A stretch of DNA of 64,000 bases, taken from positions 1 through 64,000 of the forward strand of contig JBHLON010000019.1 of the NCBI GenBank assembly GCA_048940445.1. The letters are read 5' to 3'. Shown here one piece after another: positions 28,906 through 33,698 of the stretch. The notes below the pieces were generated by a model, which saw only the letters and a program-made list of their open reading frames with translations, searched no databases and was not told where the DNA came from. Origin of the DNA: Promethearchaeota archaeon. Lineage in GTDB: Archaea > Asgardarchaeota > Lokiarchaeia > Sigyniarchaeales > SOKP01. The translations under genes were made by a program, and so were the position numbers. Each line of letters opens with the position of its first letter. Position 1 is the first letter of the stretch.

Positions 28906-29667
28906 GTGAAAATTGAAGAGGACTTGGTGAAGATAAAAAAATTTTTAAATCGCCAATTTCAAAATGAAAAGAAAATAAAAATTTTTCAGAAAAGAGAAGA
29001 TCCTCAAAATTATTTTAAACAAATAAAGCTTGGAGTCAATTTAGAAGAATTTAAAGATATAATTCTTCAAGAAGAAACAAGTCTAGAATTAGGAGGTCCT
29101 AAGAAAAAGTCTTTTTCTCTTATTTATCCATTCAAGGATTTTAATTTCTTGGATGATGGAAAAATAGTTATAGTAGGACCAGAAACTAAAGAACTCTCAG
29201 AAAAAGCTATAGACTTTGGAATTATAATATTAATTGGTGTAAATTCTGTTTCAGAAAAAATTTTTGATCAATTCAGAAATATTGCGTTTATTTCAAACGG
29301 AATTGAAGGTTTTATGATACGGACAATTCCGCGGAAATTTTGGTGTCGTATTAGTAATAATGTGATTAATAAAATCTCCTTTGAACTCTTAGCAAATGCA
29401 ATTTTATATCTTTATAATGCTAGGTTTGGAAATTTTATAAAAGCTATAGAAATAATATTGATAAGTTCAGAATTAGATATTATAGATTCTTTGATTGATA
29501 TGACATCTTCCATTCAAGATGTGTTTAACCTAAAATGGAAGGAAAAAGTCAATGAATGGAAAAGAAGAATAGATTGTAATTTTAATTGGGAATGTGCAGA
29601 ATGTCCCTATTATGATTTGTGCGAAAATATCAAGGAAGTTTTAAAAAAGAGAGAGGTGTTAGATTAA
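28906..29667 (+). CDS. CdhC/AcsB-like domain protein (short, lacks the A-cluster region)
   Basis: ET.LELGGP..SF, DGKIVIVGPE, IEGFMIR..WCRIS; C-terminal C-x5-CxxC-x5-C. Confidence 0.7.
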   Translation: MKIEEDLVKIKKFLNRQFQNEKKIKIFQKREDPQNYFKQIKLGVNLEEFKDIILQEETSLELGGPKKKSFSLIYPFKDFNFLDDGKIVIVGPETKELSEKAIDFGIIILIGVNSVSEKIFDQFRNIAFISNGIEGFMIRTIPRKFWCRISNNVINKISFELLANAILYLYNARFGNFIKAIEIILISSELDIIDSLIDMTSSIQDVFNLKWKEKVNEWKRRIDCNFNWECAECPYYDLCENIKEVLKKREVLD

Positions 29668-30440
29668 TAGAAAATCTTGTCAGACCTATTAAGGTAGCTA
29701 TTGTAGGTAAGGGAGGAGTAGGGAAAACCGTAATAGTAGTTCTGCTCGCGAAAGTTATTTCAAAAGATTACAATTATAAGCTATTATTAATAGATGCAGA
29801 TCCTACTCATCCACACTTATGTAACATGCTAAAAATCAAACCTAAAAAGACTCTCGAAGAATTAAGGCTGGATGCCATTAAAAACGCCCATATCGCGAAA
29901 CAAAATCCTCAAAAACTAGCTGAAAAGATTGATTTTGATATATATGAAGGAATGGCTGAAAGTAAAGATTTTTGTATTTTTTCAATGGGTCAACCAGAGG
30001 GCCCTGGATGTTTTTGCCCTTCAAACATTCTATTAAGAAGAGTAATAGAATCAATTTCTCAAGATTTTGATCTTATTTTAATAGATGCAGAAGCTGGACT
30101 TGAGCAAATTAATCGAAAAGTTTTTGCATCTATTGATATTCTTCTAATAATAACTGACTCATCACTTAGAAGTTTGGAAACAGCAAACTCAATTAAAAAC
30201 CATGCTAAAAAGTTTACAAATTACAAAAGGATAGGTGTAATAATAAATAAAGCAAATGAAAATATAGAATTTCTGGTTGAAAAGCTTAAGGAATTAAATC
30301 TTCCATTAATAGGGACTATTCCCGTGGATAATATTGTCAGTGAATTTGATTTACATGGAAATCCTCTTATTGATTTACCAGATAATTCTAAAAGCCTGAA
30401 AAGTATAAGAATCTTGATAAAAGATATTCTTCCTTTTTAA
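29619..30440 (+). CDS. cooC: CooC/AcsF-type nickel-insertion ATPase
   Basis: GKGGVGKT, IDADP, GPGCFCP, DAEAGLEQ; the true start may be near 29667. Confidence 0.88.
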   Translation: MRKYQGSFKKERGVRLIENLVRPIKVAIVGKGGVGKTVIVVLLAKVISKDYNYKLLLIDADPTHPHLCNMLKIKPKKTLEELRLDAIKNAHIAKQNPQKLAEKIDFDIYEGMAESKDFCIFSMGQPEGPGCFCPSNILLRRVIESISQDFDLILIDAEAGLEQINRKVFASIDILLIITDSSLRSLETANSIKNHAKKFTNYKRIGVIINKANENIEFLVEKLKELNLPLIGTIPVDNIVSEFDLHGNPLIDLPDNSKSLKSIRILIKDILPF

Positions 30441-30545
30441 AACAATTTAATACTTTAGGTTAATTTATTAACAATTTCACTTGCCCATGAGACTAATCCT
30501 TCTTTCAATTCGTTAGGATTAATATTTAATGATTTGATGAAAAAA

Positions 30546-30556
30546 TTTTTATATTA
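30546..30556 (+). promoter_or_regulatory. Putative TATA box of the leader-leuS transcript
   Basis: TTTTTATATTA after a purine-rich stretch, about 25 nt upstream of ATG 30577. Confidence 0.5.
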
Positions 30557-30576
30557 AAACACATGATTACTATATA

Positions 30577-30675
30577 ATGATTTCAAATAACACTGCTTCA
30601 TATTCATCTGTAACAGAAGAATTTTATTTAGATGATTTGCTTGCTGTGTTATTGTTATTACTAGAAGCGGAATAA
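30577..30675 (+). CDS. Putative Leu-rich leader peptide of leuS (MISNNTASYSSVTEEFYLDDLLAVLLLLLEAE)
   Basis: 32 codons with 8 Leu, including TTA TTG TTA TTA CTA at 30649-30663; ends 131 nt before the leuS ATG. Confidence 0.75.
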   Translation: MISNNTASYSSVTEEFYLDDLLAVLLLLLEAE

Positions 30676-30765
30676 GTCTGCTTAATCTTTTTCTTTTAAT
30701 TTTTCGGCGGATTATTTCGCGTGGAGTGAACTTTACTTGAAAGAGATCACAGGCGGGCTTTTTCT
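30665..30765 (+). promoter_or_regulatory. Putative attenuator with alternative RNA stems and a U-tract
   Basis: 30665-30671 pairs with 30677-30683; 30667-30682 pairs with 30706-30720; 30674-30683 pairs with 30751-30760; U-rich 30686-30704. Confidence 0.6.
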
Positions 30766-30806
30766 AATAACCAACAAATAAAAAATTATAAAATTAGTGT
30801 GATAAT

Positions 30807-33698
30807 ATGTATAATGCTCTAGAAATTGAGAAAAAATGGCAAAACAAATGGGAAAGTGCAAAGATTTTTGAAGCAGAACCAGATAGCTCTAAAGCTAAAA
30901 TCTTTATTACTTCACCCTATCCGTATGCTTCAGGAACTCTTCATATCGGGCATGGTAGAAGTTTTGTTAATGGTGATATATTTGCACGCTATTACCGTGC
31001 TAAGGGATATAATGTTTTATACCCTATGGCATTTCATATAACAGGAACTCCAGTTTTAGCAATCTCTTCATCAATTAAGAGGAAAGACAAAAAAATTATA
31101 GCTAGAATGAAGGAATATGTTTCTTTACACACAGAGGATCCTAAAAAAGTAAGAGAAATAGTTGACAATTTTACTGATCCTTGGAATATTGTAAACTATT
31201 TTTCTAATACTATGAAATTAGATTTTAAATCAATTGGAATGAGTATAGATTGGAGGAGAGAATTTACAACTGGCGATAAAATTTATAATAAACTGATTGA
31301 ATGGCAGTTTTCTAAATTAGCAGAAAAGAATTATCTAGAAAAAGGAGAATATCCAATACTTTATTGTCCAAGATGTATGAATGCTGTAGGTGAAGACGAT
31401 ATAGCTAGTGGCGATGAATTAAACCTTGATATTAACGAATTCATATGCATAAAGTTTCCCTTCGAGGATGGATACTTAGTTCCCGCTACATTAAGACCAG
31501 AAACGATATATGGAGTAACAAATCTATGGATCAATCCCATTGGAGATTATGTAAAGGCGGATGTAGATGGGGAAATTTGGTTCATCTCAAAAGATGCAAC
31601 TAAAAAGTTAGAACATCAAAATAAAACGGTTAAAGTCCTTGAAACTTTTATAGGTGAAAAACTGATTGGAAAGAAAGTTAAAAACCTTGATAATTCTAAA
31701 GATTTGCCTATTTTACCTGGATATTTTGTTGATACCGACGCTGCAACTGGAGTGGTCTATTCGGTACCCGCTCATGCACCTTTTGATTATATAGCTTTAC
31801 TTGATTTACAAAAAAGTACTGAGTTGTTAGAGAAATTTAATTTAGATAAGAAAGAAATTCAAGATATTAAACCAATTCAAATCATAGAACTAAATGATTT
31901 CCAGGATTACCCTGCTAAAGTTTATTGTAAAAAATTTGAGGTCAAATCTCAGGCTGATAAGGAGAAATTAGATAAAGCCACCGCAGAGAACTATAAGGTC
32001 GAGTTCTACAATGGAATTTTAAATAAAATTTGTGGTCAATATGTAAATAAACCTGTAAGTGAAGCTGTTAATCTTGTAATTGAAGAACTTTTAACGAATA
32101 ACCAAGCAGATAAGATTTACATTCCTGTTACCAAGAGTCTCAAATGTAGGTGTGGGGAGAAAATAATAGTTACTATTCTTAAAGATCAGTGGTTTTTGAA
32201 TTTCGATGCTGGTGATTGGAAGGAAAATGCCTTTGATTGTTTAAGTGATATGATAATAGTTCCAAAAAAATATCGAATGAATTTTGAGAATGTATTTCAT
32301 TGGTTGAAAAAAAGACCTTGTGCTAGAAAACGAGGGTTAGGTACAAAATTACCTTTTGATAAGGATTGGATTATTGAATCCTTAAGTGATTCAACAATAT
32401 ATATGAGTTTCTACACAATAGTACACCATATCAAACTTAATGGAATAAAACCAAATCAATTAATTCCCGAATTCTTCGATTTTGTATATTTAAAAAAAGG
32501 ATCCATAAACACTATTGTAAAAAAGACGAGTATTGATGAAAAATTATTAAAGAAGATGCAAGAAGAGTTTCAGTATTGGTATCCAGTTGATCATCGGCAC
32601 ACAGCAATAATGCACATTTCAAATCATTTGAGTTTTTACATATTCCATCATGTTGCCATATTTCCTAGACATTATTGGCCAAAAGTTATCACTTTAATTG
32701 AACCTGTATTAATTGAGGGCCAAAAGATGGGAAAATCTAAAGGAAACATAATTTCTCTTGGAGATATAAAGACTAAATACTCCGCAGATTTGTTTAGATT
32801 TTATATTTCACATACAGCTGATTTAGGAATTAATATGGACTGGAGAGAGAAAGAAATTCAAGCAGTTAGAAATCATATTGCTAGATTTTATGAATTCATG
32901 CATCTACATATTGAAAATGTAAAAAATTTTGATTATCATTACAAAGATATTCAATCAAAATATGCATGTGTAATTTTATCAAAAATCTCTCAGAATTTTT
33001 TAGATGCTGATGATGCTTTGAAAAACTTCAATTTACGGAAATATCTTCAGCTATCTTTCTATGAGGCATTTAATTTAATACAAGATCTACAAAAACATGT
33101 TGAGGATTATAATGATTTTGAAATTGTATTTAGCATAATTTATAGAGAGTGGCTTAAAATTATATCTTTAACTATGCCTCACCTGTCTGAAGAGTTATGG
33201 GAAATTTCAGGAAGTCAGGGATTTGTTTCAAAATCAGTTTGGGGTCAATTAGATAGTAGATTTATTGATAAAGAACTTGAGATTGAATTTAATTATGTTT
33301 CAAACCTTATTGATGATATCTTAAATATAAAAAAATTAGTTAAAGCTCGAAATACAGAAATTATTTATATCTACACTGCTATTGATTGGAAATATAGTGT
33401 GAACAATCTAATTATAAATAAAAAAGGTGACTTTAACGCTGTTATTACTGAATTGAAAAAAGAACCTGATTTGATGAAGATTAAAGAATTAATTCCATTT
33501 ATCAAACATCAAATAAGTAAACGTAGTTGGAATACTTCTATTCCTAAGTTACATGAAAAACAACTATTAAATGAGTATAAAGGTTATATTGAAAATAGGA
33601 CAAATTCAAAAATCATTATAGATTCTGATATTGATCCTCAAAATAAGGTAAGTAAAGCCATCCCCTTTAAACCAGCAATATATATTGATATCAATTGA
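30807..33698 (+). CDS. leuS: Leucyl-tRNA synthetase (archaeal/eukaryotic type)
   Basis: PYASGTLHIGH, ATLRPET, TGVVYSVPAHAPFD editing motif, ESLSDSTIY, KMGKS. Confidence 0.97.
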   Translation: MYNALEIEKKWQNKWESAKIFEAEPDSSKAKIFITSPYPYASGTLHIGHGRSFVNGDIFARYYRAKGYNVLYPMAFHITGTPVLAISSSIKRKDKKIIARMKEYVSLHTEDPKKVREIVDNFTDPWNIVNYFSNTMKLDFKSIGMSIDWRREFTTGDKIYNKLIEWQFSKLAEKNYLEKGEYPILYCPRCMNAVGEDDIASGDELNLDINEFICIKFPFEDGYLVPATLRPETIYGVTNLWINPIGDYVKADVDGEIWFISKDATKKLEHQNKTVKVLETFIGEKLIGKKVKNLDNSKDLPILPGYFVDTDAATGVVYSVPAHAPFDYIALLDLQKSTELLEKFNLDKKEIQDIKPIQIIELNDFQDYPAKVYCKKFEVKSQADKEKLDKATAENYKVEFYNGILNKICGQYVNKPVSEAVNLVIEELLTNNQADKIYIPVTKSLKCRCGEKIIVTILKDQWFLNFDAGDWKENAFDCLSDMIIVPKKYRMNFENVFHWLKKRPCARKRGLGTKLPFDKDWIIESLSDSTIYMSFYTIVHHIKLNGIKPNQLIPEFFDFVYLKKGSINTIVKKTSIDEKLLKKMQEEFQYWYPVDHRHTAIMHISNHLSFYIFHHVAIFPRHYWPKVITLIEPVLIEGQKMGKSKGNIISLGDIKTKYSADLFRFYISHTADLGINMDWREKEIQAVRNHIARFYEFMHLHIENVKNFDYHYKDIQSKYACVILSKISQNFLDADDALKNFNLRKYLQLSFYEAFNLIQDLQKHVEDYNDFEIVFSIIYREWLKIISLTMPHLSEELWEISGSQGFVSKSVWGQLDSRFIDKELEIEFNYVSNLIDDILNIKKLVKARNTEIIYIYTAIDWKYSVNNLIINKKGDFNAVITELKKEPDLMKIKELIPFIKHQISKRSWNTSIPKLHEKQLLNEYKGYIENRTNSKIIIDSDIDPQNKVSKAIPFKPAIYIDIN

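Follow-up and report, generated by a model that had tools for sequence, protein, structure and literature searches.

A leucine-rich leader ORF and two mutually exclusive RNA folds upstream of archaeal-type leuS in Lokiarchaeia: a candidate ribosome-read attenuator

We analyzed a 64,000-nt stretch of a Promethearchaeota contig (hereafter, the window), in which, according to the gene annotation, a short leader ORF and the gene for archaeal-type leucyl-tRNA synthetase (leuS) lie 3' of a CooC/MinD-like ATPase gene. The nearest relatives were mostly Promethearchaeota (Loki) MAGs. The TATA box proper occupies 30548-55, with the leader ATG about 29 nt further 3', and a TATA-like motif begins 28-36 nt 5' of the leader ATG in 55 of 57 homologues; the leader transcript is probably leaderless. 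Toward its 3' end the ORF reads two Leu codons, Ala-Val and then five Leu codons. The coordinates of all features are collected in Table 1.

Archaeal-type leuS gave a strong match in approximately 25 of 36 genomes of the genus. The same genome also carries a bacterial-type LeuRS gene (TIGR00396) on another contig (C111:1426-4212, minus strand), which is not preceded by a leader, so that only the archaeal-type copy of the two leuS genes has one. A leuA-family gene was not found in this genome (93% complete), and Rfam leader families and T-boxes yielded no matches at gathering score in the window. Fusion of the leader to LeuRS by readthrough or frameshifting was ruled out, as no open frame runs from the leader into leuS. 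Further upstream, positions 28906-30440 encode a truncated acetyl-CoA synthase beta-like protein that overlaps the CooC-type ATPase gene.

Table 1. Features of the leuS leader region, in window coordinates
Feature	Position	Strand	Remarks
BRE-like A-run and TATA box	30539..30555	+	from the sequence
Leader ORF, 32 codons	30577..30675	+	Leu codons 30637-42 and 30649-63; stop 30673-75
Helix P0, 5' arm	30586..30596	+	inside the ORF; own/foreign duplex test
Helix P0, 3' arm	30643..30653	+	Ala-Val-Leu-Leu codons; own/foreign duplex test
Family stop codon position	30664..30666	+	GAA here, which adds three codons to the ORF
Segment 1, shared strand	30667..30683	+	partner is segment 3 in fold A and 4c/4d in fold B; masked when a ribosome occupies the stop
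Segment 2, two-part U-tract, candidate aCPSF1/FttA site	30685..30704	+	looped out in fold A, base-paired in fold B
Segment 3, 3' arm of stem (b), fold A, proposed antiterminator	30706..30720	+	covariation
Segments 4a/4b, partner of the U-tract	30730..30747	+	30739-47 with 30685-93; 4a pairing weak here
Segments 4c/4d, arm (c) with the stretch that extends it	30751..30775	+	fold B partner of segment 1 and of Leu codons
Archaeal-type leucyl-tRNA synthetase gene (leuS), presumed regulated gene	30807..33698	+	TIGR00395, 951 bits (cut-off 648.5)

From genomes and metagenomes we obtained 67 usable leaders, 58 of which were non-redundant, and the covariation and ribosome-footprint tests were performed on 57-58 of these. 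Every recovered leader was an ORF with a Leu run ending shortly before segment 1. The last 10 codons contained a median of 7 Leu codons (minimum 5, in 57 homologues), and Leu occupied positions -1 to -3 before the stop in 86-96% of homologues. Across 114 codons of the Leu run, 16 were synonymous non-TTA Leu codons and none was TTT or ATA, although both are easy changes in an AT-rich genome. The leader's start and reading frame were kept among homologues, as were the place of its stop and its length, mostly 26-30 codons, and the peptides were alike at their ends while varying freely in the middle.

In the strain analyzed here, the stop codon of the family is replaced by GAA. The G was confirmed by contigs of three runs, one of them possibly the source sample, all carrying G, whereas a co-occurring strain has T at the same site, which restores the stop. 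The co-occurring strain further differs at 30682 and 30689, where the changes turn G-U pairs into G-C pairs, and at 30759, where the change breaks one end pair.

The initial annotation had described four RNA stems in this region, and all four were present where it had placed them. Stem (b) (30667-82/30706-20) comprised 15 bp with four G-U pairs and one bulged A, at -16.0 kcal/mol. Arm (c) likewise forms a duplex (30674-83/30751-60, -11.6), but the U's said to trail it were not conserved (a U4 run in 10 of 57 homologues), and the first two of them belong to the arm itself. Hairpin (a) (30665-71/30677-83) has 7 bp and -7.5 kcal/mol but is a local feature, the median in homologue windows being -1.9 kcal/mol; it spans the stop codon only because this strain has GAA where its relatives stop. 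Hairpin (d) (30726-50) reached -5.5 when folded alone, against a median of -0.2 kcal/mol in homologue windows, and contributed at most 1.7 expected bp, mostly <0.5, at every footprint and length tested. Because of this weak folding in homologues, hairpins (a) and (d) were rejected as family features, and a role for either of them or for the U's 3' of (c) found no support, none of these being conserved. As a whole, the region 30640-790 folded at z=-3.33 (0 of 200 shuffles). When 30660-765 was dinucleotide-shuffled 1000 times, 62 shuffles equaled the fold of the 66-nt prefix, none equaled the full fold, and none combined a stable prefix fold with a disjoint full fold, indicating that the combination of stems exceeds chance.

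Stems (b) and (c) belong to two folds that exclude each other through the common segment 1. Fold A corresponds to stem (b), and fold B to an extended hairpin that joins the U-tract to 4a/4b, segment 1b to the arm of (c), and segment 1a to 4d. The U-tract helix of fold B (30685-93/30739-47), for which the partner strand overlaps the non-conserved hairpin (d), had been missed by the initial annotation, as had helix P0 inside the ORF. For fold A, 88% of alignment cells were paired and 9 of 13 pairs showed two-sided changes, above both shuffles and slid controls; in the mostly paralogous copies, stem A was 89.5% paired and co-varied strongly in an alignment that was fitted to A. The U-tract:4b helix of fold B was 89% paired in the homologue alignment, and the column test for fold B gave a weaker result (13 two-sided pairs vs 10.5, 56/500).

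Because bulges shift the register between homologues, we also asked whether each strand pairs better with its own partner than with foreign ones, using 20 clusters, a clustering that reduces relatedness without removing it. Own partners outperformed foreign ones for 1:3, 2a:4b, 2b:4a, 1b:4c and 1a:4d (p<=0.0012), while five control pairings showed nothing and two were weak (p=0.03 and 0.07). Helix P0 co-varied as well, with an own-partner duplex of -11.4 vs -8.0 for foreign partners (17 of 19 clusters, p=0.0002), and it explains the conserved peptide ends. RNAalifold returned no pairs on the full alignment and a mutual-information ranking was swamped by relatedness; named-structure counts and own/foreign tests were therefore used. 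The expectation of conserved, co-varying and exclusive stems was thus borne out for (b) and (c), but not for (a) and (d). Judged from the sequences, a real and conserved RNA switch is located before leuS. One homologue (L012:1296-1503) appears to be devoid of segments 4c/4d (about 44 nt), whereas fold A and the U-tract helix are retained.

A search with a covariance model detected the element in 41 of 60 genomes of the family and in 0 of 40 genomes searched outside it. Twenty further copies were examined, which carry Ile-, Val- or Leu-rich leaders. Nineteen of these precede either a FrhB-TrmB fusion protein or unknown proteins of 52-78 aa; the remaining one (L233) is cut off after segment 3 and precedes a leuS with an apparently broken or misassembled start. 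The same RNA, behind Ile-rich leaders (L221-L229, L236), was located before a 465-485 aa FrhB-like Fe-S protein with a TrmB-type domain. A second copy in the present genome (C48:39942-40094, minus strand; L191:1501-1704) has a 25-codon leader ending in Ile/Val/Leu and precedes a 64-aa protein that belongs to no Pfam family and is present in 36 of 42 genomes of the genus. In addition, a Trp-rich leader ORF followed by a U-rich RNA, different from the leuS-type RNA, precedes trpB2 (C98:70473-70553, minus strand; L157) at 30 of 30 genus loci examined.

To relate the folds to translation, ribosome footprints, assumed to be 13-16 nt, were masked during folding. When the RNA available for folding reached 65 nt beyond the stop, fold A formed in 56 of 58 naked leaders, in 57 of 58 with a ribosome stalled eight or five codons upstream, and in 0 of 58 when the ribosome occupied the stop; a stall at -2 left it with at least 8 bp in 42 of 58. 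The initial annotation had proposed that a ribosome at the stop exposes the U-tract while stalling at Leu codons allows the read-through fold, and constrained folding agreed on both points: the stop ribosome abolished (b) and left the U-tract unpaired, and stalls at early Leu codons permitted (b). The present strain behaved as its homologues did, its shifted stop blocking A fully. At 115 nt past the stop, the U-tract was paired in fold B in 50-58 of 58 leaders in every ribosome state. Fold B formed in 58 of 58 when the ribosome occupied the stop, and in the stalled states it likewise won at full length (53-54 of 58). Only fold A on the part-made transcript was sensitive to the ribosome at equilibrium, which in this modeling points to a fold choice made co-transcriptionally. 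The U-tract was still unpaired under (b) (p ~0.8); stem (b) therefore cannot work by hiding it.

The accessibility of the leuS start region was nearly equal under folds A and B (0.46 vs 0.52; 7 vs 2 of 57). The accessibility test on 57 leuS leaders found no fold that hides the leuS ribosome-binding site, and the leuS start codon is located 128-160 nt past the leader stop, outside the folds. These results weigh against a reversed logic or a control of translation, in which fold A would be the off state formed after the ribosome leaves and a stall at the last Leu codons would yield fold B and free the start region. The place of the Leu run, directly next to the stop, would fit such a scheme, and among the paralogous copies the start region was less accessible under A than under B in 10 of 20 and the reverse in 1, although some of these starts are loosely assigned. 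On the other hand, fold B was the more stable fold in 40 of 57 homologues, which would be an odd default for an "on" state. We regard a scheme of this kind as distinctly unlikely.

We then considered the U-tract as a site of termination. According to PMC11616081, FttA cuts 22 nt from the RNA 3' end and prefers U at -23 and a U-rich stretch at -30 to -36, and Loki aCPSF1 cooperates with U-tracts (PMC8716108). Of 77 leaders, 99% had an FttA-type pattern 35-39 nt past the family stop, compared with at most 17% in any bin beyond +50; this match partly restates the U-richness of the tract. A second such site, in segment 3, was found in 57% of the 77 leaders. In this strain, the cut is predicted near 30701-05, with the polymerase then at about 30722-27, where the inner pairs of A are just able to start. 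The genome encodes aCPSF1, as a TIGR03675 match in two pieces at the ends of contigs C122 and C119, each below the whole-protein cut-off. The oligo-U/aCPSF1 site suggested in the initial annotation is thus compatible, at the sequence level, with both FttA geometry and the gene content of the genome.

The test for an intrinsic terminator, namely a GC hairpin followed by a U-run, gave a negative result in the homologues: a U4 run followed fold B in 10 of 57, compared with 54 of 57 in segment 2. For this reason, the element was not filed as a classical attenuator. In the classical layout, fold A would be the antiterminator and fold B the terminator hairpin, with the transcript ending just after (c) at about 30760-70. 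The universal formation of B with a ribosome on the stop, its covariation and the U's at 30759-65 in this strain are all in line with such a layout. However, the U's of the stretch after (c) are explained by the covariation of that stretch with segment 1a, and B also prevails at full length when the ribosome is stalled. We consider the classical layout unlikely.

Overall, some ribosome-read Leu gauge is probably present. Its specific form may be a leader-peptide transcription attenuator of leuS with aCPSF1 cleavage and fold A as the antiterminator, a model to which we assign roughly even chances; here, we infer both termination at the U-tract and which fold is "on". The ribosome would start at the RNA 5' end and trail the RNA polymerase; a possible role of helix P0 is to make the polymerase pause or to restrict re-initiation. 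With ample Leu-tRNA, the ribosome would be on the stop while segment 3 emerges, A could not close, and aCPSF1/FttA would bind the U-tract, cut near 30701-05 and end transcription. With scarce Leu-tRNA, the ribosome would wait in the Leu run and A would close at the exit channel, blocking FttA loading so that leuS is transcribed. Stem (b) would act by closing the U-tract in a loop and by pairing the RNA beside the exit channel. The read-through RNA would subsequently relax to fold B, perhaps via a loop:4b pseudoknot toehold, thereby hiding the U-tract, and B would be the resting fold of the read-through mRNA.

The Trp-rich leader before trpB2 in the same genus favors this attenuation model, while several points argue against it. 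In most homologues the Leu run extends right up to the stop, so that stalls at the last codons would partly block A as well, and at the predicted cut the polymerase would still cover part of segment 3. The model also leaves only a secondary job for B, a strongly selected fold, and paralogous copies precede genes without an evident link to branched-chain amino acids. Moreover, ribosome-free RNA forms A too, so that fast release at the stop would mean read-through and the window for cleavage is short. This short dwell would be solved by a TnaC-like arrangement, in which the nascent peptide and free leucine hold the ribosome on the stop and A stays open until FttA cuts. The sign of regulation would be right and the peptide ends are similar, but P0 accounts for the latter, the middle of the peptide varies and this strain tolerates three extra codons, making a TnaC-like arrangement very improbable.

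It is also conceivable, though improbable, that the leader is not read by the ribosome at all, being instead a structured RNA bound by a protein, a small RNA in its own right or the source of a hydrophobic peptide, while an internal promoter at the A/T-rich 4a would drive leuS. The Leu codons are indeed partly held in P0, and paralogues precede unrelated genes. A caution comes from the actinobacterial LEU element upstream of leuA, in which mutations of the leucine codons were reported not to affect regulation and for which protein binding was proposed (PMC1262725). Like the leuS leader, the LEU element has a leader ORF with a run of Leu codons, holds Leu codons within a helix, offers pseudoknot/hairpin alternatives and lacks a terminator; however, the Leu codons of the LEU element pair with the Shine-Dalgarno box, whereas those of the leuS leader pair with the start of their own ORF and the leuS start remains outside the folds. 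Against an element that is not ribosome-read, the start, frame, length and stop are kept and substitutions retain Leu. In addition, motif 4a is not TATA-like here, is absent from two homologues and co-varies with the U-tract, and the leader amino acid matches the gene in both Leu-leuS and Trp-trpB2.

Ribosome-mediated attenuation is a textbook form of bacterial control, and E. coli trpL, leuL and pheM-pheST are leader-peptide transcription attenuators. The leuS leader shares with such systems a short ORF in which the cognate codon abounds, alternative folds with a common strand, a stop versus stalled ribosome geometry (in silico here) and an aminoacyl-tRNA synthetase target; leuS attenuators have been predicted in Streptomyces (PMC1262725). 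It differs from them in being archaeal, TATA-driven and presumably leaderless, in the absence of a conserved GC hairpin with a U-tail, in placing the U-tract in the loop of the first stem, and in that the untranslated RNA takes the stalled-state fold. Rho-dependent attenuation, known from E. coli tnaC and proposed for Mycobacterium cys leaders (PMC1262725), is similar in that ribosome position would gate a termination factor without an intrinsic terminator. In contrast, the leuS leader is proposed to involve the nuclease aCPSF1/FttA on a U-tract, gating by an RNA stem and sensing of hungry codons. With archaeal aCPSF1/FttA terminators it has in common two U-runs at the spacing of the solved pre-termination complex; the available parts of PMC8716108 and PMC11616081 describe these terminators at transcript ends and do not describe a conditional site in a 5' leader.

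A search of the open-access literature found no published case of ribosome-mediated attenuation in archaea. Functional transcription-translation coupling and ribosome-FttA competition in archaea are described as open questions in PMC13681488 and PMC11616081, and a natural archaeal attenuator would directly test both. Methanococcus maripaludis, in which Loki aCPSF1 is known to function (PMC8716108), offers a host for such a test. More tentatively, and with slightly less than an even chance, we suggest an archaeal attenuator family in which a stall at hungry codons switches an RNA stem gating cleavage by the CPSF73-like nuclease aCPSF1, and whose members are reused behind leaders rich in Leu, Ile or Val and upstream of a variety of genes. 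If true, bacterial-style amino-acid sensing would be joined to eukaryote-like cleavage termination in the Asgard lineage.

No Leu leader was found before archaeal-type leuS outside the family. Among genes away from contig ends, no comparable leader was found before ileS, cysS, serS, proS, thrS, hisS or bacterial-type leuS. A tRNA-Cys-like sequence, apparently intron-bearing, was located directly 5' of cysS (contig C47). Among the loci with leader copies, L252:1529-2361 contains two small proteins in tandem, the second of which is located behind a leader copy; the pair lies between a sugar-hydrolase-like gene and an aminotransferase gene. Several small proteins behind leader copies have a common acidic motif near the C-terminus.
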